A DNA stretch of 64,000 bases from an uncultured Ktedonobacteraceae bacterium (GCA_964242555.1 CAXTCR010000001.1:1861-65860), one strand, 5' to 3'. Shown: positions 1,639-26,252, numbered from the stretch's first letter. Notes: generated from the letters alone by a model not told the origin. Program-made: numbers and translations.

Positions 1639-2250
1639 ATGCCCGGCTCTTTTGGTATCCCCCAGATCACAAGTTACCTCACGCAGATGTGTTTGAAGCT
1701 GGCACACGTAGATTATGAACGAGAGCTTGTTGAACTTGCATTTCATGGTAGTAATGGACAATGGAGGATGATCGTGAGCATTCAGCAACATGGGGAGGCA
1801 CGCAAGCTGCTGTTGATCGCGCCGCATATTGGAACGGTGACAGCAAAGCGGCGACTGGAATGCCTTGAGGCATTGCTGGCGGTCAACTACCGTATAGCGG
1901 TGGGCAAGTTTGGTATTGATCTGGCGGATGGAGAGGTGAGGCTGGAGGAAGCCATTCCACTGGGAACGGGGATAATTACGTTCGAGCAGTTTCAGCTTGC
2001 ATTTGGCGCGATCATGCAGTCGGTGGCTATGTATCATAGCCTGCTCCCGCGCATTGTGTACGGGAATCTCACACCGCTAGAGGCATTGCAGGCCTGTGAA
2101 GAAGAATTTGCTTCGCAGACTGATGGCGAGAAGCGGCCACAGACGGAGCCACTTGTCGATATGTCACAAGAGCAGCAGGGACCGAGAGCAATCAGTCTCG
2201 ACGATGTGCTTGCAGAGGTCACACGTATCTTTGAAGACAACAAGGAATAA
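1639..2250 (+). CDS. YbjN / secretion-chaperone-like family protein (putative)
   Basis: 203-aa ORF with AAGGAG 6 nt upstream of the ATG and an acidic C-terminal tail. The family call rests only on by-eye resemblance of the first ~150 aa to YbjN-type proteins. Confidence 0.45.
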   Translation: MPGSFGIPQITSYLTQMCLKLAHVDYERELVELAFHGSNGQWRMIVSIQQHGEARKLLLIAPHIGTVTAKRRLECLEALLAVNYRIAVGKFGIDLADGEVRLEEAIPLGTGIITFEQFQLAFGAIMQSVAMYHSLLPRIVYGNLTPLEALQACEEEFASQTDGEKRPQTEPLVDMSQEQQGPRAISLDDVLAEVTRIFEDNKE

Positions 2251-2258
2251 CACCAAAT

Positions 2259-2295
2259 GTGCATCACATCATAGGGAAGCCACAATGTGATGCAC
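2259..2295. terminator. Hairpin between convergent genes (11-bp stem gtgcatcacat / atgtgatgcac)
   Basis: Inverted repeat 2259-2269 / 2285-2295 read directly. It lies between the stop at 2250 (+) and the stop at 2309 (-). Confidence 0.4.
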
Positions 2296-2308: not shown

Positions 2309-4366
2309 TTAGGCCGCGGTAATTGTGCCATCCGCATTTACCCGAATGGCGACGGGGGCGAGTGGAGTTTGTGCTGGTCCCTGCAAGACAGAGGCTTTGT
2401 TGCGAGGATCGAAGATAGCGCCATGCGCTGGACAGACCAACGTGTGTGTCTTCGGGTCGTAATTGACCTCGACGCCTTCGTGGGTGCAAGCGCGTTCGTA
2501 AGCGACGAAATTTCCATTTGGCAAGTGAATAAGCAAGCTGGGCTTGTTATCTGCTGGATTGACGATATAGAGGGCCGTATTTGGCGCGATGCTCGTCGTG
2601 CCCAGGACTTTTCCAGTATGTGTTGCACCGGTTGTACCGGGGTTCATTCCACTTTTTGGGGTCGCCGTTGGGGTATTGCCAGCCTGTGTTTGCTGACCTG
2701 TCCCAGTGGTAGTGCCCTGAGCCGTGTGGGTATTAAGTTGTGGCACAAGGTGAGCAAGGTTCATTTTGCCCGCAATCAATGCACCTGCCGCGACGACGCT
2801 ACCAGCAGCAATGGTTGCAAGCACCCGTCTGCGCCCAACATTGTTGCGTGCTCGTCTGGTAGGACGAACACGCATAACCGTATCAGGGGTTTGAGTGCTT
2901 GGATCCGTCGGCTTCGTCTTTTCCCTATTGGGATTCGGCATCTCTATTGCGGACGCCTCTTGCGCGCTTGCTAAAGGTACAACGCGAGGTGGTGGCGATT
3001 GTACCCACCAAGTCGGTGTAATCATGTCGTTAGCATCATTCGCATTTGGTCCAGTGGGCAACGGTGAGGGTGCCTGTGTTGGTTGCGGCATCTGTACAAT
3101 TGGTGCAGGCGCGGGAGCAAGTGCAGAAGTGAACGGGTAGTCTGGTTGTTGTAAGAAGCTCGTTGGCGCCACAGGCTTTGGTGCAGGCGGCTCTTGTGAT
3201 GGGCGAACGGCAGCAACGCGTCCTGTAACAATGGGAGGTAAAATTTGCCACCCATCCGTTGAGCCGGGGATAGGCTGACCAGGAATTACTCCACTCTGTC
3301 CGTTGCTGTTTGAAGCAGAGGGGCGAGAGGCGAGCAGTTTACCAGTCATGATAGGAGGCGTGAGTTGCCATCCTCCGATAGAAACCTCTTCTTCGGGCAC
3401 ATTTTGTAGGTTCTGCACAGGTGACGGCTTATCCAGTAAGAAGGCACTTTCATTATTCTGTGTATTTTGTGGTCGCTGAGCAACACCTTGACATACCTGT
3501 GCAAAGGCTTCCAGGAGTTCGCCAACGCTTTGGAAACGCTGCGCGGGATCACGTGCAAGAGCATGATTGACGACCAGTTCCATCGCAATAGGAATGTCGG
3601 AGCTAAGCTTGTGAAGCGAAGGCAAGGGACTTTGCACATGCTGAATAGCCGTATCTAAAGGCGAGGTACTGGAGAATGGTGGTTTTCCGCTAAGCATTTC
3701 AAACAGGATTACGCCTAACGCATAGATATCGGAGCGCACGTCGACGGGCTGACCCTGAACAACCTCTGGCGCAATATAGGTAGATGCATAGAGAAAGGTG
3801 TTAGCGATACTTAAAAGATACGCATAAGGCTGGTCACTTTGCTCAATGCCGCGCATTTGCAGCATATGAACCAAGCCAAAGCCTGCGATGAGCAATTTTC
3901 CATCGGGAGTGGATAAAATATTTGCAGGCTTCAACGTACCATGGACCACACCTTTGCGATGCGCATGTTCGAGGCCAGCGGCGACTTGCTCCAGAACCTG
4001 GAGCGCAAACGCGGGCGTGCAACGCCCCTGCCGTTTCAGGATATCGGCGAGGGAGCCATGAGACATGTAGGGCGTAATGAGATAGGGATAGCCAAACTGC
4101 TCACCATACTCAAAAACCGGTAAGACATCACGATGGCTGAGAGCAGTCAAAGCGGCGGCTTCCCTGGTAAAACGTTGCATGAAGCGGGTTCGCATGTCCG
4201 CGTTATAGTGGTCGGGCACAATAAAGGTGGTTAGAGCGGTGGCTATGTTCTGCGACGGGTGTTGAGCCAGATAGACTGCGCTCAAACGACCACGCCCTAG
4301 TAGGCTTTTTATAGCATAATGGCCTACGGTTTGTCCTACAAGTTGACCGGTTGATACAGTTTGCAT
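2309..4366 (-). CDS. Hanks-type Ser/Thr pseudokinase with Pro-rich linker, internal Tat-like RRR membrane anchor and C-terminal Rieske [2Fe-2S] domain
   Basis: The kinase fold is readable (LGRGRLSAVY, YIAPEVV, DIYALGVILFEMLSG), but the VAIK Lys, HRD Asp and DFG Asp are replaced (TALT, HGT, GFG). It also has GRRRVLATIAAGSVVAAGALIAG and the Rieske motif CTHEG..(15)..CPAHG. ATG 4366 is preferred over GTG 4402 because of the purine-rich GGGGGGAAG upstream. Confidence 0.8.
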   Translation of the reverse strand: MQTVSTGQLVGQTVGHYAIKSLLGRGRLSAVYLAQHPSQNIATALTTFIVPDHYNADMRTRFMQRFTREAAALTALSHRDVLPVFEYGEQFGYPYLITPYMSHGSLADILKRQGRCTPAFALQVLEQVAAGLEHAHRKGVVHGTLKPANILSTPDGKLLIAGFGLVHMLQMRGIEQSDQPYAYLLSIANTFLYASTYIAPEVVQGQPVDVRSDIYALGVILFEMLSGKPPFSSTSPLDTAIQHVQSPLPSLHKLSSDIPIAMELVVNHALARDPAQRFQSVGELLEAFAQVCQGVAQRPQNTQNNESAFLLDKPSPVQNLQNVPEEEVSIGGWQLTPPIMTGKLLASRPSASNSNGQSGVIPGQPIPGSTDGWQILPPIVTGRVAAVRPSQEPPAPKPVAPTSFLQQPDYPFTSALAPAPAPIVQMPQPTQAPSPLPTGPNANDANDMITPTWWVQSPPPRVVPLASAQEASAIEMPNPNREKTKPTDPSTQTPDTVMRVRPTRRARNNVGRRRVLATIAAGSVVAAGALIAGKMNLAHLVPQLNTHTAQGTTTGTGQQTQAGNTPTATPKSGMNPGTTGATHTGKVLGTTSIAPNTALYIVNPADNKPSLLIHLPNGNFVAYERACTHEGVEVNYDPKTHTLVCPAHGAIFDPRNKASVLQGPAQTPLAPVAIRVNADGTITAA

Positions 4367-4567
4367 TCGGGCTTCCCCCCACAGATTTCTATTGATGTAC
4401 ACAAAGGAATTTTACATACTGTATCAATGTAGGTCAATGTGATATACCAAAAGTAGGACTTGTGTCTATTTTAGGATAAAAATAAACGTTGAAAAAACAC
4501 AAATAGGAGCAAAAGCAGGACCAAATCTGCAACATTTGAGTTGTGTTACAGATGTGATCCCAACTTG

Positions 4568-7393
4568 TTATGCATGTTTGGCATCTTTAGCGTGTAGAGC
4601 ACGAAGAATGCGTTCTGGAGTGAGCGGAAGTTGGCGTATGGAGAGTCCGAGGGCATCTGCTACAGCGTTGCTTATAGCAGGAGCAACGCCGCTTTGCGCA
4701 ACCTCAACCACCGATTTCGCGCCAAAGACAGCGTTTGAGGCTTCCTCGTCTTGCAGCAGGTAGGTTTGTAGCTCTGGCATTTCAGTCGCGTTACAGAGGT
4801 GATACTCATCAAGTGTTTTCGCGAGAATGTATCCCTCTGTATCATACAGAACTTCCTCGCTCTGGGAAAAGCCCAAGCCTCTGACGATGCTCCCCTGCAC
4901 CTGTGCCTCGGTTAGGGCGGGATGAATAACGCGTCCGGCATCGAGGGCGGCAAGCAGTTTTATAACACGCACCTCGCCGGTGTCGATGTTCACCTCTACC
5001 TCGGCGCCGTGTACAGCATGGGCAACAGGAGGAGAGGTTTCTTTCCAGAAGGCATTGGTGAGAAGCTGTTTACCCTCATTTGTCAGTAGGTGCGTAGCGA
5101 TCTGAGCAAGGGTGAGCGTGTGACCATTGAGCGGCGAGGGCGTGACGACACCTTCGCGTATGGTCAGATTTTCCGGGATATTTCCGAGCAGGCGACTCGC
5201 GACGATGAGCATCTGCCGGCGAACCTGCTCTGCCGCCCGGTGCAGTGCTGCCCCCGCGTTGTAGAGCGTCGAGGCCTGCTCTGTTGTTGTCCCAACAGGG
5301 ATAGTGTCGGTCGTGGAGGTATGCAACACAATTTCGTCTACCGACACATCGAGCACCTCGGCGGCAATTTGTACGAGCATTGTTTTGAGGGCGGGATCAG
5401 CCACACTCACAAACACATCGAACGAGCCATCTTCATTCAGCTTTACACTAGCACCGCTGCTTTCAGCATTTGGTAGCGTGTTGTCAAAACGCGTGAGGGC
5501 TATGCCAACGCCGCGATGCAGGCGGCTGTTCAATGTTTGACCGCGTTTAGCGCCCCATTGAAGTTTTGCCTCGACAAGTTGCAGACACTCTTGTACAGTA
5601 CGACTCGCTGTTGACGGAGTTTCTCCTCTACCCCAATTTTTGCGTCGAAACGCAAGAGCGTCCATGTGCAATTGCTTGGCGACCTCGTCCATATGAGACT
5701 CTAGTGCGAACAGTTCAGCAGATGCACCTGGCGTGTTACTGGCTGGCGGAAGATTTGTATAGAGGACTTCAGCGACAAAGCGTGTGTGTGGGCATGAGTA
5801 GAGTGACAGCACATTTTGACTTGTAGGTGTATATGTGCCGTAGGCGCCAGTACTAGTAAGCACAAGCATTTGCTGCGCAACGAGTGAGCCATCGCTCCTC
5901 ACGCCTGTTTTCACACGCACGATGTGTTGAGGAGAACCAATGTCGCGTAACTCCTCAGCACGAGAGTAGACAAGCCTCACGGGTCGGTGGGTAGCCTGCG
6001 TAAGAAGGGCACAGATATCTTCACTTACCAAAGATTGTCCTGCTGTAGGATTACCAAGCGTGGGCTGCTCGACGCGAATACAGCGAATGGGAATGCCCAG
6101 TATGGTAGAGAGCTGTCGACGCAAGTTGTGCGGTGTGTAGGCATTGGAACGCACAACAAGATAGTCATCTTCGTCGAAATAGGTAATAACACTATGGGGT
6201 TCAAGGGATGCTTGCCGCGTCATTTGTGTGAGGTATTCGTTCTCTATTACTATATCAGCATCCGCGAAGCCACGTTCCACATCACCGGTTTCAAAGCGTG
6301 TACGAGCCGCAACATTACGCTCAGCATCATGGATATTGCGTGACTCAGACTCCGCGTGTATGCGAATGTTACCGCTATCTAATGCTTGCCGTGGATGCAA
6401 CAGAGGCGGCAGCACATCATATTCGACGGAGATGCGTTCCAGGGCTTGTTCAGCGAGTTCTGGAGTCTCAGCGGCGACGGCGGCAACGCGATCACCACTA
6501 TAGCGTACGATATAGTCGAGACTATAGCGGTCCTGTGGTCCCGTTTGGCTTCCGCTTGCAAAAGGCACGCGCGGCACATCCTCGTACGTCAACACAGCAT
6601 GTACGCCCGGCATGGAGCGTGCTGCGGAGGCGTCAATACTGCGAATCACAGCATGGGCACGGGGGCTAGTCAGTATTTTTGCGTATAACACGCCAGCGGG
6701 TACATCATCATCTGTAAACGTGGCGCGACCCATTACTTTTTTTACCGCATCCACAGGCAGGACGGATTTTCCGATAATGGAGTAAGGAGTGCTGCCGACA
6801 CCAGTAAAAGGCGTCGTGATTTGTAGAGCACGTCTTTTACTGGTAACGGTATTTGAACCATCCAGGACAACGGCGCGCTGCTTGCTCGTAGTACGTGCGC
6901 CATTGAGGGCGTTGGCGTACTCTGCAGGCACTTCTCCGCGCAGAATTGAGGCTGCGTTGAGCACTGCCTCTATGGGTTTTTCGTAACCTATACACCGACA
7001 GAGATTGCCGGAGAGCGCATCGCGTATCTCGTCTTCTGTTGGTTGTCCGTTGCGCTTGAGCAGGGCTGAAGCGGACAGTATCATACCAGGAATACAGAAG
7101 CCACAACCGGTCGCGCCTAGAGTTGCAAATGCTTGTTGCACTGGAGTGGGGGTGTTTGCTGTTCCTAAGCCCTTCACCGTTGTGAGGGTACAGCCGCCAG
7201 CCTGTGCCGCGAGTAAGACACAACTTGTTTTAGGGACACCGTCGACCAGCACAGTACACGTACCACACGCGCCCGTTTCACACCCCTGTTTGACCTCTGT
7301 GTAGCCATTACGCCGCAACAATGTCAACAGGGATTCATTAGGGGCTGCGTCTAAACTCTCAACAGTACCATTGACACGTAACTCAAGTTCCAT
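4568..7393 (-). CDS. Xanthine dehydrogenase / aldehyde oxidase family protein, with the [2Fe-2S] small subunit fused to the molybdopterin-binding large subunit
   Basis: 941 aa. The N-terminus carries both 2Fe-2S motifs (GCETGACGTCTVLVDG; GCGFCIPGMILSA; LCRCIGYEKP), followed by a ~780-aa Mo-cofactor dehydrogenase-like body. It starts 5 nt after the FAD-subunit stop. Confidence 0.85.
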   Translation of the reverse strand: MELELRVNGTVESLDAAPNESLLTLLRRNGYTEVKQGCETGACGTCTVLVDGVPKTSCVLLAAQAGGCTLTTVKGLGTANTPTPVQQAFATLGATGCGFCIPGMILSASALLKRNGQPTEDEIRDALSGNLCRCIGYEKPIEAVLNAASILRGEVPAEYANALNGARTTSKQRAVVLDGSNTVTSKRRALQITTPFTGVGSTPYSIIGKSVLPVDAVKKVMGRATFTDDDVPAGVLYAKILTSPRAHAVIRSIDASAARSMPGVHAVLTYEDVPRVPFASGSQTGPQDRYSLDYIVRYSGDRVAAVAAETPELAEQALERISVEYDVLPPLLHPRQALDSGNIRIHAESESRNIHDAERNVAARTRFETGDVERGFADADIVIENEYLTQMTRQASLEPHSVITYFDEDDYLVVRSNAYTPHNLRRQLSTILGIPIRCIRVEQPTLGNPTAGQSLVSEDICALLTQATHRPVRLVYSRAEELRDIGSPQHIVRVKTGVRSDGSLVAQQMLVLTSTGAYGTYTPTSQNVLSLYSCPHTRFVAEVLYTNLPPASNTPGASAELFALESHMDEVAKQLHMDALAFRRKNWGRGETPSTASRTVQECLQLVEAKLQWGAKRGQTLNSRLHRGVGIALTRFDNTLPNAESSGASVKLNEDGSFDVFVSVADPALKTMLVQIAAEVLDVSVDEIVLHTSTTDTIPVGTTTEQASTLYNAGAALHRAAEQVRRQMLIVASRLLGNIPENLTIREGVVTPSPLNGHTLTLAQIATHLLTNEGKQLLTNAFWKETSPPVAHAVHGAEVEVNIDTGEVRVIKLLAALDAGRVIHPALTEAQVQGSIVRGLGFSQSEEVLYDTEGYILAKTLDEYHLCNATEMPELQTYLLQDEEASNAVFGAKSVVEVAQSGVAPAISNAVADALGLSIRQLPLTPERILRALHAKDAKHA

Positions 7394-7398
7394 TTGTG

Positions 7399-8376
7399 CT
7401 ATCTGCTTTCCTTGCTTGTATTTTCCTGTGCCGTCAACAATTCTTGATAGCGCGCAAGATAGGTTGCTTCTTCGAGGACACGCCGGGCAAGTTTTGCTCC
7501 ACTCACACGCCGATAGCCACCTGTCACACGTCTATCGGTGGGGGGACGAAATTCGGTCATGCCATGTTGCACGGCATCTGCGATTGCGGCAGTATCGTCA
7601 ATTAGCAGACCCACAAGCGTGTGCTCAATAGTGCGCATACGTACAGGCTCCATATTGACGCCACCAAAGGCCAATCGCACACGTGTGTACTTTTGCGCCT
7701 CGACCTCTACATATGCGGCGACATTGAGCAAGGCCACATCTGCGAGAGTACGGGCGACGCGTGCGAAAGCTGTTCCATGTGGGGCATGTATCGCAGGAAG
7801 CACACATTCTACAATCAATTCGTTAGGAAGTCGCTCCCCAAGTACGTCATCGGCAGCTATGCGTCGTTCTTGCTTGCCCTTGTAGACCACTCCGGCAAGG
7901 GCCAATCCTGGTCGCTCCCATGTGCCTCCACTAAGGTCAACGGAGGTTTTTGAGCCTGAACGGACTATCGTCTGTGCTTCCAGGACCGAGAGGGCAGTTA
8001 GAATATCGGCATGGGATGCAGCACCAGTGCTCAGCGAGCCTCCTAACGTTGCGCTGTTGCGGATAAGACGCGATGACGAAGAGGAGAGAGCTGCGTGTGC
8101 CAAGAGACCAGATGCATATCCATTCAGGGCAGGAGCATCAACAATGTTTTGCAGCGTCGTCATTGAGCCAATGTGGATATCCCCGCGTGTATCCTCAGAA
8201 ATATAAGCGAGACCTAATTCGCGCAGGTCAACGACAGCCTCGATAGTGTCATCATCCTGACCTAAAAGATAAGTTCCACCCGCGAGTGGAACTGTTTTTA
8301 CATTCAGCCGAGCAAGCAGTTCTAAAGCATCGTCGATATGCTCGGGCCAATGATATTCGACAAGGTTACGCAACAT
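7399..8376 (-). CDS. Molybdopterin dehydrogenase FAD-binding subunit (CoxM/XdhB-like)
   Basis: FAD-binding subunit pattern (VPLAGGTYLL, ATLGGSL). ATG 8376 lies 5 nt after the adenine deaminase stop. The ORF-track extension to 8493 would overlap the upstream gene. Confidence 0.8.
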   Translation of the reverse strand: MLRNLVEYHWPEHIDDALELLARLNVKTVPLAGGTYLLGQDDDTIEAVVDLRELGLAYISEDTRGDIHIGSMTTLQNIVDAPALNGYASGLLAHAALSSSSSRLIRNSATLGGSLSTGAASHADILTALSVLEAQTIVRSGSKTSVDLSGGTWERPGLALAGVVYKGKQERRIAADDVLGERLPNELIVECVLPAIHAPHGTAFARVARTLADVALLNVAAYVEVEAQKYTRVRLAFGGVNMEPVRMRTIEHTLVGLLIDDTAAIADAVQHGMTEFRPPTDRRVTGGYRRVSGAKLARRVLEEATYLARYQELLTAQENTSKESR

Positions 8377-8381
8377 AGCAA

Positions 8382-10163
8382 TTAGAGCCTTTGTAACGGA
8401 AGCAGGGTGAAGGTTTCGACATCGATCAGGCCCTGATCCGTGAGTTTGAGTGAAGGAATAACCGATAAAGAAAGAAAGCTGAGTGTCATGCATGGATGAT
8501 CGAGAACGCAGCCGAGTTCGGCGGCGACCTCATCCAGATGACGTAGTTGCCCTACCAGTTCAGCAGCGGGCAGGGGTGATACCAGCCCAGCGAGCGGCAA
8601 TGGGACACGAGCCAGTACCTGGCCATCTGCGACACAAACAAAGCCTCCGCCCATTTCTTGTAGTGCGCGTACCGCGCCAACGATGTCGCTATCACTTGCG
8701 CCCGCGATAACGAGGTTATGAGCATCGTGTGCGACACTGGAGGCAAGTGCGCCTTTTTTGAGACCGAGGCCTTGAACAAGCCCAAGCCCGAGGCGACCGC
8801 TGGCATGGTGGCGTTCAACCACGACGAGTTTCAGCAGATCGCGCGCCGGGTCCGCGACAATTTCGCCGTCGCGTATGGGGGCCTCTACTTGCAAGTGCTT
8901 TGTTGTGATCTGCCCCCGTTCAATGCCGATGACCTCGACCGGTCCTAGTTTGCCCGCAATACGTAGCTCGTACTCGGTGAGGGGGGCAATATGGATAGTC
9001 TGCGTTACTTCGACCTCGCGCATGGCCATATCGGTTTCGATACCCATTACAGCTGCCGAGGGAATATCAACGAGGAGACCGTCATTTTGCGCAACCAGTA
9101 TGCCATCTTTGTAGACGGATTCGACCTTAAAGGTGTGTAGATCGTCCAGCACGACAAGATCGGCAACACAACCCGGCGCAATCATACCACGATGATATAG
9201 GCGGAAATACTGAGCGGTATTGTAGGACGCGAGACGAATGGCTTCTATCGGATCTAGCCCCAATTCAATGGCGCGCCGGACCATCGAGTCCATGTGGCCC
9301 CGCGTGGTGAGATCGAGCGGGTCACGGTCATCGGTGACAAAGAAGACACGCGGCGGGTGCAATTCTTGAACTAGGGGTAAGAGGGCGTCAAGGTTCTGGG
9401 CTGCTGAGCCTTCGCGAATCATCAACCACATACCAAGGCGTACGCGTTGGCGCGCATCCTCAAGTGTTGTGCATTCGTGATCGGACATAATGCCAGCGAT
9501 AGCGTAGGCAGAGAGGTTTGGACCAGTCAGGCCGGGAGCGTGCCCATCCACGACGAGGTTGCGCCGGAGTGTTGCCTCGATTTTTGCCAGGACTTGTTCA
9601 TCCCCATGCAGCACGCCGGGCATGTTCATCATCTCGGCGAGACCCAACACCCGTTCATCGTGTAAGAGGGGAAGCAAATCGTTAGCGGTCAGGACGCGAT
9701 AAGGGCTTTCAAAAGAGGATGCGGGCACGCAGGAGGAGAGCAAGATATAGGTGGAGAGGGGCAAGCCACGGCCCGACTCAAGCACATAGCGAATGCCTTC
9801 GACTCCCATCACATTGGCGAACTCATGTGGGTCAAGCATGACTGTTGTCACACCACGCGGCACTACAAGACGAGCAAATTCGGGTAAGACTAACATGGTG
9901 CTTTCGATATGCATATGTCCATCAATAAGGCCTGGGGCAAGCCAGCGCCCCTGTAGGTCACGTTCCTGTTGTCCCTGATAGGAGTGGGAGTGTGGTGTAT
10001 TACTTTCGCTCACGCCCATAATTAAGCCATCGGCAAGAGCGACATCGGCAAGATAGTTTTCACCAGTGCACACATTGACCAAATTCGCGTTGCGCAGCAC
10101 GAGGTCAGCGGGCAATTCTCCACGGGCAATCTGGATATGTCGTTTTAGTTCACTCATAACCAT
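8382..10163 (-). CDS. ade: Adenine deaminase
   Basis: 593 aa. Amidohydrolase metal motif GLIDGHMHIES, with length and sequence pattern typical of Ade. First gene of a tightly packed three-gene operon. Confidence 0.85.
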   Translation of the reverse strand: MVMSELKRHIQIARGELPADLVLRNANLVNVCTGENYLADVALADGLIMGVSESNTPHSHSYQGQQERDLQGRWLAPGLIDGHMHIESTMLVLPEFARLVVPRGVTTVMLDPHEFANVMGVEGIRYVLESGRGLPLSTYILLSSCVPASSFESPYRVLTANDLLPLLHDERVLGLAEMMNMPGVLHGDEQVLAKIEATLRRNLVVDGHAPGLTGPNLSAYAIAGIMSDHECTTLEDARQRVRLGMWLMIREGSAAQNLDALLPLVQELHPPRVFFVTDDRDPLDLTTRGHMDSMVRRAIELGLDPIEAIRLASYNTAQYFRLYHRGMIAPGCVADLVVLDDLHTFKVESVYKDGILVAQNDGLLVDIPSAAVMGIETDMAMREVEVTQTIHIAPLTEYELRIAGKLGPVEVIGIERGQITTKHLQVEAPIRDGEIVADPARDLLKLVVVERHHASGRLGLGLVQGLGLKKGALASSVAHDAHNLVIAGASDSDIVGAVRALQEMGGGFVCVADGQVLARVPLPLAGLVSPLPAAELVGQLRHLDEVAAELGCVLDHPCMTLSFLSLSVIPSLKLTDQGLIDVETFTLLPLQRL

Positions 10164-11810: not shown

Positions 11811-12146
11811 TCAAATGGCCTGGCTAAAAAAGTCATCTGCGCCAACCTCATATACCGTTTTTTCTACATTTTTACTAGCTGACATGAGGATGCTAGGAAT
11901 GTGGCGGGTACGCTCCTCGCCTTTTAAGAATTTGCAGATAACTCTTCCATCCATGCCCAACATCCAAATGGCGAGCAGGAGCAAGTCAGGCAGTTTCTTT
12001 TTTCTATCATATAGAGCTTTGCTGTCAATAGTGGTTTTGACCTGGTACCCTTCCATTTCGAGCATGACTTGCATGGCATCGAGAATACCTTCATTCTCCT
12101 CCACAATGAGCATATTTTTACTCTTGTTTGATTGCCTCTTCATCAA
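11811..12146 (-). CDS. CheY-like receiver domain protein, degenerate (acceptor Asp replaced by Ala; C-terminus out of frame; possibly a pseudogene)
   Basis: Receiver pattern MLIVEENEG...PDLLLLAIWMLGMDG...ILMSAS...ADDFF. The frame ends at 11811, but the +1 frame continues as LARPFDVDELVALVEKYV to a stop at 11771. See findings. Confidence 0.6.
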   Translation of the reverse strand: MMKRQSNKSKNMLIVEENEGILDAMQVMLEMEGYQVKTTIDSKALYDRKKKLPDLLLLAIWMLGMDGRVICKFLKGEERTRHIPSILMSASKNVEKTVYEVGADDFFSQAI

Positions 12147-14946
12147 GGGTATCCTCGGGTTGCGGCAGCAAGCGTTCCTCGATAGGTACAGTGAAACCGA
12201 AGGTTGACCCCTGTCCTTCTTCGCTTTCTACCCAGATAGTTCCTCCATGGCGGCGGATGATCTCGCTAGAAATATAGAGGCCGAGGCCAAGACCCGGATA
12301 GAGATTATCTTTGCTACCATCCACACGATAGAAGCGCTCAAACACTCTTCCTTGCTTTGTCTTTGGTATGCCGAGGCCAAAGTCTTGTACACTTAATGTT
12401 ATCGTATGAGCAGTGGCTTCAGTTTTTACAATGATGGTATCGGCGTGTGGTGAGTACTTCACTGCGTTAGTTAGGAAGTTGGTAATAACTTGTCCCAGAC
12501 GATCTTTATCGCCATAGACCATCTTGTTGCCCATCAATTCTGTGTGAATAGTATGGCGGGCGGTGGTACGCTGAATTTCATCGACAATCTCACTGACCAA
12601 TGCGTTAAAATCAAAATGGTCTAAGCGGAGTTGAAGTTTGCCAGCCTGCATTTTTGACACGTCGAGCAAGTCAGCAATCAGCGTGATCAGTTTATTGATC
12701 TGAGCGTCCATCTTGCCAAGAAGCTCGAATGATGAGATATCGCCTTTATTCTTGAACAGCCTCTGTAGTACTTGGGCATAGGCTTTAATGCTCGTCACGG
12801 GGGTCTTCAACTCGTGTGAAGCAACTGCAAGAAATTCATCTTTCTGCTGCTCTAACCTTTTGATATTCGTGATTTCTGTGACGACGCCGCCCACAAAATC
12901 CACGGTAGCACTTTTACCAATGAAAACGGGGTAAAAGCCAGTGAGCCAGTAACGAGTTTCTCCTGGCCGTTTCGGTGTTTGTCCCGTCACTTCAAAGTCA
13001 AGTACGGGTTCTTTTGTTTCTACCACTTTGTCTAATACAGGCGCGACCGTTTTAGCGTTAACGGGTAAAAGCTCTTCTATTTTCTTACCGATATGATCTT
13101 GAGCTGGCAAGCCATTGATTTGGGCTAACGTGTCGTTGATACGAATGTAGCGATGCTCTTTGTCGAAGAAGGCAAAGCCAACGGGCGCGTTTTTGAGCAG
13201 CGATTCAAGAAGGGCAAGCGTCTCTTCTTGTTTTTCTTTACTTACACGTAGTGCTTCTTCTATCTGTATCTGTTCGCTGATGTCCGTGTTCGTACCAAAC
13301 CAATGGATTACCTCTCCCTTATGATCTTTCACAGGCATCACGCGGGTTAAAAATGGTCGGAATACGTTGTCATTCCCTCTAAGAGGAAAAACCATATCGA
13401 ACTGTTCTCCAGCGGCAATCGATGCCTGCCAACGCTCTAGGACGAGGGGAAGCTGCTGAGGGTCGTGAACGGATTGCCAGCCCCAGCCCTCCATATCCTT
13501 TGAAGTTGTGCCTGTGTAGTCATACCAGCGTTTGTTATACCAGTAGATGTAGCCATCGGGTTTTGCCATCCATGCTAGATTTGGAATGTTATCAGCCATT
13601 GCGCGGAAGTGTTCTTCCGATTTGATCAGTTTCTCTTCAGCTCTCGCACGTTCGAGACGTGGGAAAACACGATTTGCTAATTCACGTACCAACTCGACTT
13701 CATCTTCGCGCCACTCGCGTGGCTGTACGCTATGAACGGTAAACAAGTATTTCCACTCACCATGTTGGTAAAAAGGAACGGTGATAAAGGCTAATGCTCC
13801 AATTTTGGCATTCTCTTCACCCTTCGTGATTGGATTTATTTGTGTATTATTGCTAACAACCGTTTCTTTAGCATACACTCGTTGATAAAAATCTCCACTT
13901 ACATGCTCTGAAAGTCGTAGCTTATCTGGTTGGCGCGGCACATGTGGTGCATTCCAGCGATCAAGATATGTTACCTCATCATGCGCCTCGTCGATCAAAG
14001 CGAAGTGGCAGTATTCTACGTGTAGAAACTCTCCGATACGCCCTCCTGCGGCTTGCATAATCTCGTCGGGAGAACTTAAGGTTGCAAAATCCTCCGCGAC
14101 TTTGGCCAGAAGTGCTGCATTAGCCTCTTGACGTTTTTGATCAGTTATATCTCGATTGACGGCAACGGTACCTATTTTCTTGTTTTCTGCGTCTTTCACT
14201 ACAGAGACAAAGGAAAAAATAGGAATTTTCGTTCCATCTTTTCTTGTTTGAATAGCTTCCCCTCTCCACTGTCCGTATCTCGCCATAGCCATTTGTGCTT
14301 CTTCTCGTCCATGAGGGTTATCGGGAAACTCATTTTCGAGCACATCTCGTACATATTTTCCTTTCACCTCTTCCGCGCTCCAGCCATACAATGCTTCCGC
14401 GCCCTTATTCCAAGTAGCAATTCTATAGTCGTTGTCCGTACTTATTACAGCATCAATAATATTGTCTGTAAGTGCTGCAACATAGTCATCTGTTTCCCTT
14501 TGGCTATACGAATTAGAATATTCTAAAGCGAGCTTTGAGATAATCCTATCGCAATTCGTCATAAAGAGAGAATTAAACGCACATACTTCCTGAACAGTCA
14601 GAGTATAGAGGCAACCAGCTTGTTCTAGCGCATCTAAGATACCTTGCTTTACATGCTGGATTTCGGCTAATGCTTCTGTGAGCGTTACATGCTGGGGGAT
14701 GAGTCTTCTGGCAATGCGCTCACCAAGTTGTTCAAGGATGCTCGTCTCCTGCTTGCTCTCTATGAGAGAGTCTGCCAATGTCGCGATGACTCTGAGGGTA
14801 TCTACTTCATAAAGTGCGGGTTTCTTTTTAGGTCCATTACTTTGCGGTTGGAGGCGTTCTTTCGAAATACGCTCGTAGATTTCGCGTGAGTGCAAGTGGA
14901 GAAAATTTGTGAGTACCGCAAACTTCTCTTTCTCGGCTTGAGTCAT
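12118..14946 (-). CDS. Cytoplasmic multi-PAS/GAF sensor histidine kinase
   Basis: H-box FLAVASHELKTPVTSI and HATPase_c boxes (NAVKYSP, DFGLGIP, GLGLGLYIS). Several PAS/GAF-like segments and no TM helix. ATG 14946 has GAAGGA upstream, whereas the GTG 14988 extension has no RBS. Confidence 0.85.
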   Translation of the reverse strand: MTQAEKEKFAVLTNFLHLHSREIYERISKERLQPQSNGPKKKPALYEVDTLRVIATLADSLIESKQETSILEQLGERIARRLIPQHVTLTEALAEIQHVKQGILDALEQAGCLYTLTVQEVCAFNSLFMTNCDRIISKLALEYSNSYSQRETDDYVAALTDNIIDAVISTDNDYRIATWNKGAEALYGWSAEEVKGKYVRDVLENEFPDNPHGREEAQMAMARYGQWRGEAIQTRKDGTKIPIFSFVSVVKDAENKKIGTVAVNRDITDQKRQEANAALLAKVAEDFATLSSPDEIMQAAGGRIGEFLHVEYCHFALIDEAHDEVTYLDRWNAPHVPRQPDKLRLSEHVSGDFYQRVYAKETVVSNNTQINPITKGEENAKIGALAFITVPFYQHGEWKYLFTVHSVQPREWREDEVELVRELANRVFPRLERARAEEKLIKSEEHFRAMADNIPNLAWMAKPDGYIYWYNKRWYDYTGTTSKDMEGWGWQSVHDPQQLPLVLERWQASIAAGEQFDMVFPLRGNDNVFRPFLTRVMPVKDHKGEVIHWFGTNTDISEQIQIEEALRVSKEKQEETLALLESLLKNAPVGFAFFDKEHRYIRINDTLAQINGLPAQDHIGKKIEELLPVNAKTVAPVLDKVVETKEPVLDFEVTGQTPKRPGETRYWLTGFYPVFIGKSATVDFVGGVVTEITNIKRLEQQKDEFLAVASHELKTPVTSIKAYAQVLQRLFKNKGDISSFELLGKMDAQINKLITLIADLLDVSKMQAGKLQLRLDHFDFNALVSEIVDEIQRTTARHTIHTELMGNKMVYGDKDRLGQVITNFLTNAVKYSPHADTIIVKTEATAHTITLSVQDFGLGIPKTKQGRVFERFYRVDGSKDNLYPGLGLGLYISSEIIRRHGGTIWVESEEGQGSTFGFTVPIEERLLPQPEDTLDEEAIKQE

Positions 14947-15078
14947 TGTGAGCGTTCCTTCTATGAAGAAATGGTTGTGCGGGTGCACATTGTTATTCTT
15001 ATAATAACATAGGGAGTCTAACTTTGAAAGTATAGATGTTGCCCATCCATTGCTAAGTAGGACATGATAAATCGATCC

Positions 15079-18284: not shown

Positions 18285-19121
18285 ATGGACACCTCTATCC
18301 GTTTCTACAATACGAATGGCAATGCGCACTCAGCCTTTGAGAAGGAGGGTACGCGTAAATTCACCGTTCCATTGCCAATAGATGGGGAAGGCAGTGTGGC
18401 TGAAATAGGAGCAGATAGACGAGAATACGCAACCTCGTCGCCCGAACCTGCCGTACGTGAGCATGCTCAGGAAACTGAACAGGCTGTCGCGGTAGACATC
18501 GCTGACTTTGAATCGATCTTTCTGCGCTTCCAGACACCGATCACGAACTACATCTATCATCTACTTGGCAATCGAGAACAGGCATATGATTTAGCACAAG
18601 ATGTGTTTGTCAAAGCGTACAAGGCATTATTGAATGGAACGGTCGTTCAACCGGCAGCACTTTCAGCATGGCTGTACCGGATTGCCACGAATACGACGAC
18701 AGACACGCTGCGGCGCAGGAGATTGATTTCATGGTTGCCGCTCTCGCTGTTTAACGAGGACCGGGGCATTGGCGCTGGAGTACTCTCCGATTCGGGGGGT
18801 GCAGCTGATGGCTTTACCAATCCGAATGAAGAGAACGCACATGAAAATCGTGCGGGTTCTGTAGGTGCACTGTATGAGCGCAACGGTTATGATGGTGGGC
18901 GCTTTGAAAACAGCGTCGCGGATAAAGAGTTGGTCGAGCGCGTGATGAAGCAATTACAACCTAAGTACGCGGTCTGCCTCTGGCTCTATGAGAACGATGG
19001 TTTGTCTTGTGCAGAAATAGCTGAGGTACTCAATATTAGCTCGTCGGCAGTGAAGATGCGACTGATGCGTGCACGAGAGCGATTTATTGATCTATACAAA
19101 AAAGAGGTCGGTGAAGAGTGA
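18285..19121 (+). CDS. ECF (sigma-70 family group 4) sigma factor with N-terminal extension and long region 2-4 linker
   Basis: Region 2 (YDLAQDVFVKAYKAL, WLYRIATNTTTD) and region 4 (LSCAEIAEVLNISSSAVKMRLMRARERF). Confidence 0.85.
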   Translation: MDTSIRFYNTNGNAHSAFEKEGTRKFTVPLPIDGEGSVAEIGADRREYATSSPEPAVREHAQETEQAVAVDIADFESIFLRFQTPITNYIYHLLGNREQAYDLAQDVFVKAYKALLNGTVVQPAALSAWLYRIATNTTTDTLRRRRLISWLPLSLFNEDRGIGAGVLSDSGGAADGFTNPNEENAHENRAGSVGALYERNGYDGGRFENSVADKELVERVMKQLQPKYAVCLWLYENDGLSCAEIAEVLNISSSAVKMRLMRARERFIDLYKKEVGEE

Positions 19122-20932
19122 ACTGTAATCAAGCGCGGTTATTGCTTGCGTCCTATCGTGAATTTGGGCAGAATAAAGCGGGTTCAATGGAGCTAGATGC
19201 GCATCTGGAAGAATGTGCATCGTGCAGGAACATTCTGGCGCAGTACAGCGTTATAGGTGAGCGCGTTCGCATGGTACCTTCGATAGAATCCGCTCCAGAC
19301 GCACATACAAAACTTATGCATGCACTCGCGGCAGAGCATGCACGTTTCCTACAACACGCGTCGAATGCGCAGGCATCATCGGCCTCGTCCGTGCCAGATT
19401 TCCTTAAGCCGTACATGAATGAACATGGGGATGAGAGACACACCGCACAACTCAGAGCCTTCTCTAGTGCCGAGACCGGCCCTCTGCCTGTTCTGCCTGC
19501 GAAACGCAAAAAGCGTGTAGCTCCAACGGGACAATTTGCCGTTCTTGGCCTCGCCGCAAGTTTCCTCATGATATTTTTAGTTGGCGGCCTTGTTTCTCTC
19601 CTGGTGTTGGCCAATCATGGAGTAAATAACAACTCAAATACGGTCATCTCCATTAAAAACCCATCCCTGATAGCGCCGATCAGTTATACGGCAGAGACAG
19701 CGTATTCACATATCGCGAGTGCTGTTGCTACTCCTGGACACGTGTTTTACTCGGCGTATAACGATGATGAGACCCAATGGATGATTGAGGGACTAAGTGG
19801 CACAACGCAGCACAGTGGTACAACAAAGAATGCTGTGAGTGTTCCACTTCTACAAAACAACAGTCAGAATCCACTGTTCGTGTTGGGAGCCTCGTCTCAA
19901 TGGGTCATCTGGCTACAGTTCGACACGCCACAAAACAAAGTTCAACATCACACTTCGAGCACTGCTTTTACACGCACATGGAGTTTGAATGCTCTATCGC
20001 TTCCATCCAATGGAGATGGACAATTTAGAAACGTGATGACGTTGCAACGCGGTACCTTCGATACCACAACAGCCCCTGACTGGGTTCGTACTCCTATCCA
20101 AGGCATCTCATTTATACAACAGGATACATTGCTTGTGGCATCGTTGGATGTGAAGGGTACGGCACAGCTTGTGCGCTACCAACTGGACACGCACGGGGGA
20201 ACAAGTTCTACGCTTATCGCAACGGCTACAAATGGACATGTACTTACCTCGCCCAGCGCAACGGAGGATGGGTCGCGCACATTCTGGTCTGAGGAATGGT
20301 TTACAGATAATCAACAGCCGCATAGTACGGTCTGGACACAGGAGCAAACGCAACAGCTAGTGCATCAGAGGGGCGCGTGGCGTCAGAGTGTCCAGGTGGA
20401 TAAGCATGTCTACGGTTCGGGCGATACATCGTTTCACCCACTCGTCATTAATGACACGCTTTTCTTGCTCAGTACAAGCGATGCGACTGCTCCAACACAA
20501 GGAACTCCAAACGCGGCAAGCAGCCCAACGGTGCAGGCCACGGCTACTTCTGTGCCACTGACACCCGTTATCGCACGCTTCACAACCGTGTATCCTACGC
20601 AGATTGACGAGTTTATACACGGCACCATTCTAGCTGTGCCGCTTTATGATGTAACGGCGCAATCGACAACGCTTTCAAGTGATAGCATGGCGGCGGCACC
20701 ACAAGCAGGAATGCGCTTCCTATTATGGCAGAGCGGTGCAGGCTATCAAATGTATGATGCGGTCGCTAAATCGACGGTGGAAGTGAAAGACAGTACAAAG
20801 GGTGCCTCGTTCCTGGAAGTTAATGGAGACTCGGCGGTATGGGTCGTGGACGCAGCAACTAGAACTGCGACAAAGAATACGACGAGTGTTCAGACTGCGA
20901 CATTCAACATGTTTAACTGGCCTTCGCAGTAG
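19118..20932 (+). CDS. Anti-sigma factor (zf-HC2) with single TM and large extracytoplasmic domain
   Basis: GTG start overlaps the sigma stop by 4 nt. It has the HLEECASCRNIL motif, the TM helix FAVLGLAASFLMIFLVGGLVSLLVLA and about 430 aa outside. Confidence 0.75.
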   Translation: MNCNQARLLLASYREFGQNKAGSMELDAHLEECASCRNILAQYSVIGERVRMVPSIESAPDAHTKLMHALAAEHARFLQHASNAQASSASSVPDFLKPYMNEHGDERHTAQLRAFSSAETGPLPVLPAKRKKRVAPTGQFAVLGLAASFLMIFLVGGLVSLLVLANHGVNNNSNTVISIKNPSLIAPISYTAETAYSHIASAVATPGHVFYSAYNDDETQWMIEGLSGTTQHSGTTKNAVSVPLLQNNSQNPLFVLGASSQWVIWLQFDTPQNKVQHHTSSTAFTRTWSLNALSLPSNGDGQFRNVMTLQRGTFDTTTAPDWVRTPIQGISFIQQDTLLVASLDVKGTAQLVRYQLDTHGGTSSTLIATATNGHVLTSPSATEDGSRTFWSEEWFTDNQQPHSTVWTQEQTQQLVHQRGAWRQSVQVDKHVYGSGDTSFHPLVINDTLFLLSTSDATAPTQGTPNAASSPTVQATATSVPLTPVIARFTTVYPTQIDEFIHGTILAVPLYDVTAQSTTLSSDSMAAAPQAGMRFLLWQSGAGYQMYDAVAKSTVEVKDSTKGASFLEVNGDSAVWVVDAATRTATKNTTSVQTATFNMFNWPSQ

Positions 20933-20994: not shown

Positions 20995-21834
20995 TTATTT
21001 CCCCTCTTTGAGAATGTCGAGATGCATGTTATGGAGCTTATTCTCCATTTCTTGCATTTTTGTGAGCATGACATTCATCTCTAGCTCTGTCTTCACGTTT
21101 ACTTCATAATCGAGGTCTGCTTTGATACGATCTTTCGCGGACTGCCGGTTCTGGCTGATCAGAACGAAGATCGAGAGAAAGATAGCTTCGAGCGACACTG
21201 CCATGGTGAGAAACTGAAATGGATAGGGATCAAACTGAAAGCCTTTTGGACCAAGTGTATTGGCAACAATCCACACGACAAAAGCGATAAGGTTCATGAG
21301 GAGGAAGGGAATAGAGCCGCTGAAATCCGCAATTACGTCCGCGATACGCTGCCCAACCGAAAGTTGCACTTCCTCAGCCTCATTGGGGTTACGACTAACA
21401 CGGGTACGCAGGATATCATCGGTATGTTTGAGGCGTTGCCCCAGTTCCATCAGCACATCGAGGGCAGCATCAGGCCGACGCCGCAGGAAATCAAAGAACT
21501 CATTGCGGTCCAGTTCGAGCGTGACCACCTCGCCTTCGGAGGTCGCGCTGGCCGAGCGCGTCTCGCCGGCCAGCATTGATAGTTCGCCAAAGAATTTTCC
21601 TGGACCAAGCACGTCGAGCACGACCTTTTTGCCATCGCTATCGATGAGCCATATCTCCACCTCGCCACGCTCGATGATGCTAAACGCGCAGCCTAGATCG
21701 CCCGCCCTCATGACCTGCTGCCCCGGTTGGAAAACTCGTTCCGTCATGATTGAGCGGACCTCAGCCCGCTCATTATCATCCATATTCGAGAAAAGTGGTA
21801 TTTCAGCCAGAAGCTTTGTCGTTACTAGACTCAT
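20995..21834 (-). CDS. Cyclic-nucleotide-binding domain protein with C-terminal DUF1003-type membrane module
   Basis: cNMP-binding pattern (FGELSMLAGETRSASA) followed by PYPFQFLTMAVSLEAIFLSIFVLISQNR, which is typical of DUF1003. Confidence 0.75.
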   Translation of the reverse strand: MSLVTTKLLAEIPLFSNMDDNERAEVRSIMTERVFQPGQQVMRAGDLGCAFSIIERGEVEIWLIDSDGKKVVLDVLGPGKFFGELSMLAGETRSASATSEGEVVTLELDRNEFFDFLRRRPDAALDVLMELGQRLKHTDDILRTRVSRNPNEAEEVQLSVGQRIADVIADFSGSIPFLLMNLIAFVVWIVANTLGPKGFQFDPYPFQFLTMAVSLEAIFLSIFVLISQNRQSAKDRIKADLDYEVNVKTELEMNVMLTKMQEMENKLHNMHLDILKEGK

Positions 21835-24413: not shown

Positions 24414-24446
24414 ATTATTGTCTCCTTGTGTAAGATTTGACCTGTC

Positions 24447-24550
24447 GTAGGGAGAATGTTCACGGCGTCCAAAACCGATGTATCGCGTATACAATGGCAC
24501 GTATAGCCAATGAATTGGCGTTTTGTGGACGCCGTGAACATTCTCCCTAC
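24447..24550 (-). repeat. 104-nt inverted repeat (24-bp perfect stem plus 5 bp) inside the metK 5' leader
   Basis: Arms 24447-24475 and 24520-24550 read directly, with a 2-nt bulge in the right arm and a loop of about 44 nt that has its own small stems. Confidence 0.6.
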
Positions 24551-24573
24551 CAAGAGGTGAGGAAGGAGGGTAT

Positions 24574-24598
24574 AAAAAAACCCCTGCAATGTAGGGGT
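24574..24598 (-). terminator. Riboswitch expression-platform terminator (ACCCCU-ACAUUGC-AGGGGU-U6)
   Basis: 6-bp GC stem plus a U tract immediately 3' of the SAM-I aptamer. The 3' P1 strand AGGGG can alternatively pair with ACCCCU as an antiterminator. Confidence 0.7.
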
Positions 24599-24615
24599 AT
24601 GGCGTGTTGCACATT

Positions 24616-24740
24616 CCCCTCATCTTGCGAAACATAGCGTGCGATGTTTCACCGGAATTGGCACCCTTCCTGCTATGGTATTAGCAGATGGGTTGCCGGG
24701 CTTCGTCGGGCCGTTTCCCTCCACCTCTCTGGATGAGAGC
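24616..24740 (-). promoter_or_regulatory. SAM-I (S-box) riboswitch aptamer
   Basis: The - strand reads GCUCUCAUCCAGAGAGGUGGAGGGAAACGGCCCGACGAAGCCCGGCAACC...GGGUGCCAAUUCCGG...CAAGAUGAGGGG. This matches the conserved S-box core and P1 pairing, and it lies upstream of metK. Confidence 0.9.

Positions 24741-24890: not shown

Positions 24891-26252
<1,362 letters not shown>

Follow-up and report, generated by a model that had tools for sequence, protein, structure and literature searches.

A 64,000-nucleotide stretch of DNA from an uncultured Ktedonobacteraceae bacterium (GCA_964242555.1, CAXTCR010000001.1:1861-65860), referred to here as the window, carries near its beginning a complete minus-strand gene whose product very probably consists of four successive parts: a PknB-like pseudokinase domain, a long linker, an internal anchor with a twin-arginine (RR) motif of the kind used by the twin-arginine translocation (Tat) pathway, and a Rieske [2Fe-2S] domain (Table 1). 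The 685-residue product read from the ATG at position 4366 is 100% identical to the database protein P0001. A longer open reading frame (ORF) at 2309..4402 on the same strand would yield 697 residues if counted from a GTG at 4402. The ATG is the likely start, since a promoter-like TTGACC-17-TAAAAT site and a purine-rich GGGGGGAAG run are found just upstream of it. The promoter-like site, as well as the terminator-like hairpin in Table 1, comes from a scan for consensus matches only, in which site counts were not above shuffled expectation.

The two recognizable domains are both detected by Pfam above curated cut-offs, as the preliminary description of this locus had anticipated when it proposed a HMMER comparison. 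Pkinase (PF00069) covers residues 29-291 in the 697-residue numbering (E 3.6e-39, 135.2 bits against a cut-off of 31.7), and Rieske (PF00355) covers residues 620-682 in that numbering (E 2.7e-8, 34.1 bits against a cut-off of 20.3). For the kinase part, a phmmer search of the PDB gives StkP and PknB matches at 1e-38, and the nearest NCBIfam types are PASTA kinases of the PknB/Stk1 type. The defence-system names MADS6 and PglW from NCBIfam were rejected, with scores far below the cut-offs that derive from the generic kinase domain. In the AlphaFold2 (AF2) model built on a family alignment, residues 1-300 and 580-685 have a predicted local distance difference test score (pLDDT) above 90, and everything between them falls below 50. 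The modelled kinase domain superposes on Stk1, PknB, and PknA with a template-modelling (TM) score of up to 0.88, the highest value being that for Stk1 (Foldseek).

The catalytic positions of this domain were placed by aligning it to StkP with HMMER and, with MAFFT, to a guide sequence of PknB that reproduces the known K40, E59, D76, D138, and D156 positions. In strand beta3, where the catalytic Lys of VAIK would be expected, the protein reads TALT; PknB K40 corresponds to T46 in the MAFFT alignment or to F48 in that of phmmer, which defines the equivalent residue only to within one to two positions, and neither alignment places a Lys or Arg anywhere in beta3. The catalytic Asp is lost through the replacement of HRD by HGT, and the metal-binding Asp through the replacement of DFG by GFG. 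These three substitutions had been claimed from an initial reading of the sequence, and both alignments bear them out. The same reading listed the G-loop, the alphaC Glu, APE, DIYALG, and the subdomain XI Arg as retained, which the alignments confirm (Glu69 and Arg277 being the residues concerned), together with K146 and N149 of the catalytic loop. Glu69 is thus kept even though its usual partner, the beta3 Lys, is gone. Alignment to PknB further indicates that the Thr of the P+1 "GT" has been lost and that the segment from GFG to APE is longer than in PknB.

Among 5.8 billion proteins searched, at least 120 clusters (90% identity) combine Pkinase with Rieske; they are 41-100% identical to the query, and their source names all point to Ktedonobacteria. 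All of these read VALT, HG[T/S/M...], and GFG, and the RR pair and the four Rieske ligands are conserved across ~120 clusters as well. In a scan of one genome per species, full-length relatives were restricted to Ktedonobacteria, namely metagenome-assembled genomes of Ktedonobacteraceae as well as Dictyobacter, Tengunoibacter, and Thermogemmatispora, and only generic kinase-domain matches were obtained outside this group. The survey across genomes that had been suggested for this architecture therefore uncovered a large family confined to Ktedonobacteria rather than a single oddity. Two paralogues may occur in one genome, as with loci L006 and L022 or L009 and L024. The catalytic triad is absent from 32/32 full-length genomic members; Thr is present at the beta3 position in 30 of these 32, and Gly at the first position of DFG likewise in 30. 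Among aligned members T46 is found in at least 90%, H142 and G143 are invariant across the family, and the column of the catalytic Asp contains T, I, A, M, S, or L, but never Asp. The equivalent of PknB D76 is D or E in 26 of the 32.

Sequence comparison strongly supports clear constraint on the evolution of this apparently dead domain. Mean identity over 36 species pairs is 58% for the pseudokinase, 66% for an active kinase encoded in synteny with it, and 61% for the Rieske domain, and mean column conservation reaches 0.74 in the kinase domain and 0.72 in the Rieske domain, with 0.2-0.3 in the linkers. Decay in a single gene was rejected on the strength of this constraint and of the recurrence of the losses in ~120 clusters and 32 loci. 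Judged by sequence, the domain is a pseudokinase, as it combines a kinase fold with the family-wide loss of the Lys and both Asp residues and with constraint. It is presumably catalytically dead and would be unable to phosphorylate.

That the domain might instead be active through displaced or unconventional catalysis, as in WNK, CASK, and ILK1, is highly improbable. Such activity could draw on the retained K146, N149, Glu69, APE, and overall fold and on the near-invariant Arg27, and precedents for "pseudokinase" activity exist (PMC9403797; WNK is discussed in PMC12599244). However, the Lys and both Asp residues have been lost together, a class that nearly always lacks ATP binding (PMC12599244), the catalytic Asp has given way to any of T, I, A, M, S, or L, more variation than a catalytic residue should show, and the P+1 Thr is missing. 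A displaced WNK-like residue, which the preliminary description had itself raised against its proposal, was looked for and rejected: in the alignments Ser or Asn occupies the beta2 position at which WNK has its Lys, and only Arg27 of the G-loop is conserved. Arg27 lies at the tip of the G-loop in GRGR and is present in at least 90% of 64 aligned close relatives, with a looser column among distant paralogues (R in 15/32). It may plug or re-purpose the nucleotide pocket.

The C-terminal domain displays the ligand pattern C627-x-H629-x15-C645-x-x-H648, in which all four ligands are invariant. The two Rieske ligand boxes had been correctly recognized at the outset, but the spacing given for them, CTHEG-x15-CPAHG, is amended here to CTHEG-x13-CPAHG (CxH-x15-CxxH). 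NCBIfam relates this part of the protein to actinobacterial QcrA (3e-13) and to AioB, the small subunit of arsenite oxidase (8e-11), and also to PetC. A profile of the module, compared with PDB sequences, matches AioB at 8e-16, PetC3 at 4e-15, and QcrA at 3e-13, whereas cytoplasmic Rieske ferredoxins and dioxygenases reach only 3e-3 to 8e-3. The domain retains a pLDDT above 90 when modelled alone, and Foldseek relates the separate model best to AioB and Synechocystis PetC3 (TM 0.83, 32% identity), and also to the Chlorobaculum Rieske protein and actinobacterial QcrA. By sequence profile and modelled fold, the domain is a member of the exported AioB/PetC3/QcrA group, in line with the exported type first proposed for it.

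Neither the pair of disulfide-forming cysteines nor the Ser and Tyr residues that donate hydrogen bonds next to the cluster in bc1/b6f Rieske proteins are present in the window protein. Where bc-type proteins read CTHLGC and CPCHGS, it reads CTHEGV and CPAHGAIF, with no second Cys, Ala in place of Ser, and Phe in place of Tyr. Mutagenesis of bc1 Rieske proteins has established that the disulfide and the Ser/Tyr donors raise the midpoint potential. Since both are missing here, the sequence predicts a midpoint potential lower than that of bc1-type Rieske proteins. One free-standing relative, P0169, keeps the disulfide cysteines (CTHAGC...CPCHG), which nearly all the rest of the clade lack, and this suggests that the clade descended from an exported Rieske protein of the bc type.

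Between the two folded domains there is a single hydrophobic segment, residues 515-533 in the 685-residue numbering, with a 19-residue Kyte-Doolittle mean of 2.06. The next-best 19-residue window in the protein reaches 1.12, and no Sec-type helix precedes the RR-anchor. The segment follows RRARNNVGRRR, and the Tat-like stretch GRRRVLA leads into a 19-residue Ala/Gly-rich helix. The RR pair (R512/R513 of 685 residues) is internal rather than N-terminal. An RR pair is present in 115/116 full-length members, in the pattern [VMI][GS]RR[KRQ][VA][VI]A. The internal RR-helix aligns with the N-terminal Tat signals of the free-standing Rieske proteins P0151 (MPGKHVRRRDLLGW...), P0160, and P0143, which are 58-60% identical to it in the Rieske domain; the internal twin-arginine motif and helix noticed initially are thus homologous to the Tat signals of free-standing paralogues, with a hydrophobicity that is marginal. 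A plain sum on the Hessa scale, without position weighting, gives insertion energies of +0.64 kcal/mol for the family helix, +1.12 for that of the window protein, and -1.79 for the syntenic active receptor kinases, whose helices are Leu-rich. Tat-dependent last helices tabulated in PMC5449189 have insertion energies in the same positive range. Approximately six Arg/Lys residues occupy the 15 positions before the helix and favour an N-in, C-out orientation. The spacer that follows the helix is 50-95 residues long across the family.

On these sequence features, a Tat-dependent location of the Rieske domain outside the membrane is likely. The Rieske domain could alternatively stay in the cytoplasm, or cross unfolded and without a cluster, the RR pair being a basic patch and the helix either peripheral or of the Sec/YidC type. 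This is very unlikely, although AF2 gives no helix for the segment, its hydrophobicity is marginal, and internal Tat signals without earlier membrane helices are undocumented. The near-universal RR pair fits the Tat consensus, the RR-helix aligns with true N-terminal Tat signals of homologues, the positive-inside distribution would put the C-terminus outside, and every near relative of the domain is an exported Rieske protein. Furthermore, the four Rieske ligands are invariant, and therefore the cluster appears to be under selection. A 2Fe-2S cluster could not be assembled after Sec export.

Cleavage by a signal peptidase after the helix is similarly improbable. It would set the Rieske domain free, with the pseudokinase left behind as a separate membrane stub, and the N-terminal part might serve as a built-in escort while the cofactor is loaded and the protein targeted to Tat. 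In its favour, cleavage is common among Tat signals, the free-standing homologues may undergo processing, and 72/117 members have a basic residue in the c-region, as Tat signals do. Nevertheless, no clear A-x-A site can be read from the sequence after the helix (AGKMNLAHL), and Rieske Tat signals are characteristically uncleaved anchors (PMC3471235). A constrained cytoplasmic region of 500 residues with motifs of the receptor-kinase juxtamembrane type also better fits a covalent link.

The linker between kinase and anchor is disordered and ~200 residues long, and contains a family signature, [GD]xWQ[LIF]xPP[IV][VI]TG[KHR][LVM], with a hydrophobic residue at position +3 from the Thr. The window protein has two copies, GGWQLTPPIMTGKL with Thr341 and DGWQILPPIVTGRV with Thr381. 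Two copies are likewise present in 83/117 members and one in 33/117, and the Thr is kept in 199/202 copies; Q374, P377, P378, and T381 are each found in at least 90% of members. Among 79 fetched loci and the window, the motif is confined to pseudokinase-Rieske proteins. A hydrophobic residue at +3 of a phosphorylated Thr (pThr) is the pattern favoured by FHA domains. By analogy, the conserved linker Thr parallels Thr290 of PrkC, which is kinase-proximal, lies in a disordered juxtamembrane region, and must be phosphorylated for trans-activation (bioRxiv 10.1101/2025.11.01.686061).

The Tat-Rieske cassette is not restricted to pseudokinases. A combined Tat and Rieske profile was used in a HMMER scan of 1.84 billion cluster representatives (50% identity) and retrieved 231 clusters at E<=1e-30, the best 150 of which were classified by pairwise alignment, a procedure that is approximate for beta3. 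Among these best 150, ~88 are kinase-like without the triad, 54 have no kinase domain and are free-standing proteins or fragments, and 5 are active kinases. The scan thus found the cassette in three forms: free, on active kinases, and on pseudokinases. The active versions (P0215, P0260, P0270, P0294, and P0320) have entirely canonical AAIKVL, HRDIKPEN, DFG, and GT..PE motifs and make up ~5 of the ~93 kinase-Rieske representatives examined. Compared with the window protein they are 57-63% identical in the Rieske domain and 29-35% in the kinase domain, and the WQxxPP motif is absent from them. P0333 (L080 10001-11566) is a further canonical active kinase on an RR-anchor and Rieske module, with an uninformative gene context. 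The free-standing Rieske relatives are Ktedonobacteria proteins of 150-170 amino acids, 58-65% identical to the window protein in the Rieske domain; at L040 such a gene stands alone in its genome.

Gene neighbourhoods were compared using crude longest-ORF calls in the related loci. The orthologue group of the window gene has the order HEAT-repeat protein, amine-oxidase-like flavoprotein, DUF1015, pseudokinase-Rieske, convergent YbjN, M29-like peptidase, active receptor kinase, and GNAT acetyltransferase. This syntenic receptor kinase has intact VAVK, HCD, and DFG motifs, a Leu-rich helix, and a 3-keto-disaccharide-hydrolase (DUF1080-like) ectodomain, and is encoded 2-4 kb downstream of the orthologues (L001 14137-15849; L007 12128-13834; also L006, L008, L013, L014, L017, L018, and L020). 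In the window its position would fall just beyond coordinate 1, as the window ends before the expected positions of the M29-like peptidase and the active kinase. Directly upstream of the window gene and on the same strand lie genes for adenine deaminase, a xanthine-dehydrogenase FAD subunit, and a fused 2Fe-2S/molybdopterin subunit. This neighbourhood is found only in the window and its closest relative, L001, and the others have DUF1015 and amine-oxidase-like genes. An operon with the xanthine-dehydrogenase/adenine-deaminase genes was rejected on this ground and because the window gene has its own promoter-like site and a hairpin after its stop codon.

A second group of paralogues is divergently paired, ~300-430 bp apart and in nine loci, with a gene for an FHA-domain protein of ~1200 amino acids. 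This partner contains Pyr_redox_2, FHA, 4Fe-4S ferredoxin (Fer4), and two cyclic nucleotide monophosphate (cNMP)-binding domains (L012 3849-7568, minus strand; also L016, L021, L022, L024, L027, L028, L029, and L031), and an unannotated gene of ~300 amino acids comes next after it.

Elsewhere in the window, an S-adenosylmethionine (SAM) riboswitch (RF00162, 73.6 bits) precedes an S-adenosylmethionine synthetase gene, an ordinary arrangement, and a gene for S-adenosylhomocysteine (AdoHcy) hydrolase lies just upstream. Other signalling genes of the window encode a cNMP-binding and DUF1003 protein, two large PAS/GAF histidine kinases, a sigma factor of the extracytoplasmic function (ECF) type followed by a 604-residue ORF without Pfam match, and a zf-HC2 (anti-sigma-like) protein with PD40 repeats.

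Table 1. Coordinates of the pseudokinase-Rieske gene, its parts, and other features of the window.
Feature	Coordinates	Strand	Basis or remark
Pseudokinase / Tat-anchor / Rieske gene, complete, 685 codons and stop	2309..4366	-	ORF, database identity, Pfam
PknB-like pseudokinase domain, residues ~12-298	3473..4333	-	Pfam, PDB phmmer, AF2, Foldseek
Arg27 and neighbour in GRGR, G-loop tip	4283-4288		
Thr46 at the position of the beta3 catalytic Lys (VAIK to TALT)	4229..4231	-	Alignments
AlphaC Glu69	4160-4162		
HGT replacing HRD, catalytic Asp gone	3935..3943	-	HMMER and MAFFT alignments
GFG replacing DFG, metal-binding Asp gone	3875..3883	-	HMMER and MAFFT alignments
Linker motif copy 1, GGWQLTPPIMTGKL, Thr341	3335..3376	-	Family signature
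Linker motif copy 2, DGWQILPPIVTGRV, Thr381	3215..3256	-	Family signature
Arg-rich twin-arginine motif and Ala/Gly-rich helix 515-533, predicted uncleaved Tat signal-anchor, N-in	2765..2857	-	Conservation, homology, hydrophobicity
Thr/Gly/Gln/Pro-rich spacer, ~50 residues, predicted extracytoplasmic and disordered	2615..2764	-	pLDDT <50, low conservation
Rieske [2Fe-2S] domain, residues 585-685	2312..2614	-	Pfam, NCBIfam, AF2, PDB profile, Foldseek
Rieske ligands C627/H629	2480..2488	-	Invariant in family
Rieske ligands C645/H648	2423..2434	-	Invariant in family
TTGACC-17-TAAAAT promoter-like site	4409..4437	-	Consensus match
Purine-rich GGGGGGAAG run	4380..4372	-	Just upstream of ATG 4366
16-bp hairpin, terminator-like, directly 3' of the stop codon, common to the convergent YbjN gene	2259..2295	-	Consensus scan
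YbjN-family gene, convergent, conserved neighbour in 12 related loci	1639..2250	+	Synteny in related loci
Adenine deaminase, xanthine-dehydrogenase FAD subunit, fused 2Fe-2S/molybdopterin subunit	4568-10163	-	
S-adenosylmethionine synthetase	23154-24635		
SAM riboswitch RF00162	24617-24739	-	73.6 bits
AdoHcy hydrolase gene	24891-26210		
Other signalling loci, listed jointly	20995-21834 (-), 12118-14988 (-), 32083-34734 (+), 18285-20932 (+), 29939-31789 (+)		

Several known systems resemble parts of the window protein. The PASTA kinases (PknB, PrkC, StkP, Stk1) come closest to the cytoplasmic domain in sequence and fold and share the general layout of the protein, consisting of a kinase fold, a disordered juxtamembrane region with a kinase-proximal Thr, a single helix, and an outside sensor domain. 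The window protein differs from them in the loss of all three catalytic residues, in its Rieske ectodomain instead of PASTA repeats, in its weakly hydrophobic twin-arginine anchor instead of a Leu-rich Sec-type helix, and in the length of its linker (~200 instead of 40-80 residues).

Seven families of bacterial pseudokinases have been described (ActPs1-3, GLW, CP1, DYD, and DLHK), mostly from actinobacteria, proteobacteria, and cyanobacteria (PMC12599244). MviN/ActPs3, ActPs1, ActPs2, and GLW likewise have a Hanks fold with three degraded motifs and a membrane segment C-terminal to the fold. The families are marked by GLW in place of HRD, by a beta3 Arg and HRN in ActPs2, by an activation-loop deletion in ActPs3, by loss of the G-helix in ActPs1, and by a COG3899 fusion in CP1 (PMC12599244). 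Set against these published descriptions, the window protein differs in its taxon (Chloroflexota/Ktedonobacteria), its VALT/HGT/GFG motifs, and its longer activation segment; its G-helix region is modelled by AF2, and Pfam finds no COG3899 domain in it. Although ActPs1 has been linked to a domain related to a redox cofactor, pyrroloquinoline quinone (PQQ), none of the seven families has a Rieske domain or a Tat anchor (PMC12599244). Once phosphorylated by PknB, MviN of M. tuberculosis, itself a pseudokinase, recruits the FHA protein FhaA (PMC12599244).

For the anchor, the precedent of an internal Tat signal is the Streptomyces Rieske protein, and such signals have been documented solely for dual Sec-Tat proteins (PMC3471235, PMC5449189, PMC13186574). 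Actinobacterial QcrA (Sco2149) has a Rieske domain related to that of the window protein and, like it, an internal RR before its last weakly hydrophobic helix, which drives Tat transport of the C-terminal cofactor domain. In the Streptomyces protein two Sec-inserted helices come first, whereas in the window protein a soluble region of ~510 residues comes first, with no earlier helix. Also unlike QcrA, the window protein is not encoded with cytochrome b/c partners and lacks the Rieske disulfide. Synechocystis PetC3 and AioB share with it a compact fold of ~100 residues and an FDP motif after the second ligand box, and AioB of NT-26 also lacks the disulfide, as the titles of PDB entries listing the engineered mutant F108C-G123C indicate. 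Those proteins, however, are stand-alone electron carriers or enzyme subunits with N-terminal Tat signals. In the window protein the module instead forms the C-terminal half of a protein of the signalling type, in which the spacer is long and flexible.

No description of a pseudokinase or Hanks-type kinase joined to a Rieske domain, or of Ktedonobacter equivalents, was found in a literature search, which agrees with the initial impression that this is not a characterized signalling architecture. Databases already show the two domains together, under the automated label "serine/threonine protein kinase/Rieske Fe-S protein". What appears not to have been described is the pseudokinase state, along with the Tat anchor, the linker motif, and the structure of the family. 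The protein is a combination of known kinds, a receptor-type bacterial pseudokinase and a Tat-inserted Rieske protein, and is not categorically new.

Taken as a whole, the protein is best explained as a Tat-inserted, receptor-like pseudokinase that would serve as a redox-responsive scaffold in Hanks/FHA signalling (probability roughly 0.55). The 2Fe-2S cluster would be inserted in the cytoplasm and the folded Rieske domain moved across the membrane by Tat, whose signal would insert as a hairpin and stay as the anchor, with the pseudokinase and linker remaining inside. The flexible spacer would let the Rieske domain reach partners away from the membrane surface. Outside, the domain would signal redox conditions, through its own cluster state or through binding to a redox partner, and would set the oligomeric state or the choice of partner. 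Inside, the pseudokinase would act as a scaffold or allosteric partner that retains the docking and substrate-side features found in receptor kinases. The linker Thr would be phosphorylated in trans by active kinases, candidates for which include the rare active kinase-Rieske siblings, and the resulting pThr would be read by FHA-domain proteins, as in the mycobacterial MviN-FhaA-PknB circuit. A circuit of this kind is plausible because paralogues adjoin an FHA gene and because active kinases share the Rieske ectodomain. The scaffold and sensor mechanism taken by itself is tentative and falls somewhat short of even odds.

Several findings weigh against this explanation. AF2 does not model the anchor segment as a helix, and the literature consulted documents no Tat substrate in which ~510 cytoplasmic residues come before the signal without any earlier membrane helix. 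The window orthologue group is not adjacent to an FHA gene, and its conserved neighbours suggest general synteny more than an operon; the window itself encodes neither a further kinase nor an FHA domain, and 4/9 FHA-paired paralogues lack the WQxxPP motif. The AF2 model shows no confident docking of the linker motif, the linker having a pLDDT below 50. An allosteric back-to-back dimer of the PknB type is unsupported, with the R10/L33 equivalents not conserved. Finally, given the retention of K146, N149, Glu69, and Arg27, the domain may still bind some ligand or nucleotide.

The Rieske domain could also be a working electron carrier rather than a sensor, for example a shuttle between the quinol pool or a Rieske/cytochrome b-type complex and an extracytoplasmic oxidoreductase, with the pseudokinase and linker regulating or localizing it from inside. 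The closest solved relatives (AioB, PetC, QcrA, and PetC3) are all electron-transfer proteins, free-standing Tat-Rieske paralogues without a signalling domain exist, paralogues adjoin a large flavo-iron-sulfur protein, and Ktedonobacter racemifer has a Rieske/cytochrome b complex (PMC3509893). Such a role is nevertheless unlikely for the window protein, as no partner oxidoreductase or cytochrome b is present among the conserved neighbours of its orthologue group, and the same module on active receptor kinases has the layout of a sensor ectodomain. In addition, a flexible spacer of 50-95 residues is unlike the short tether of cytochrome b Rieske proteins. The receptor-like scaffold remains the preferred explanation. 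An extension of it, in which Ktedonobacteria possess a dedicated extracytoplasmic redox-sensing system of Rieske-ectodomain receptors, with abundant pseudokinases paired with the rare active kinase-Rieske proteins or with other receptor kinases, phosphorylated on the invariant Thr of WQxxPPIVTG, and recruiting FHA redox/cyclic-nucleotide effectors, is conceivable, if somewhat doubtful. Under this extension the Rieske module would be the first metallocluster ectodomain in bacterial Ser/Thr signalling, and the protein the first natural Tat substrate in which a folded cytoplasmic signalling domain of ~500 residues takes the place of the "signal peptide n-region".

If the Tat-inserted scaffold explanation is true, an iron-sulfur redox domain would join the short list of sensor ectodomains of bacterial Ser/Thr kinase-type receptors. 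The known reach of Tat would likewise be extended to a signal placed behind a large folded cytoplasmic domain without any earlier membrane helix, which would bear on the hairpin/loop model of Tat signal insertion. According to a 2025 review, the function of bacterial pseudokinases is largely unexplored by experiment (PMC12599244), and the free Rieske proteins, active kinase-Rieske proteins, and pseudokinase-Rieske proteins would form a natural set for addressing the role of a pseudokinase, with cultured host genera available in Ktedonobacter, Dictyobacter, Tengunoibacter, and Thermogemmatispora. Ultimately, this family may offer insight into how bacteria link the redox state outside the cell to kinase-type signalling.

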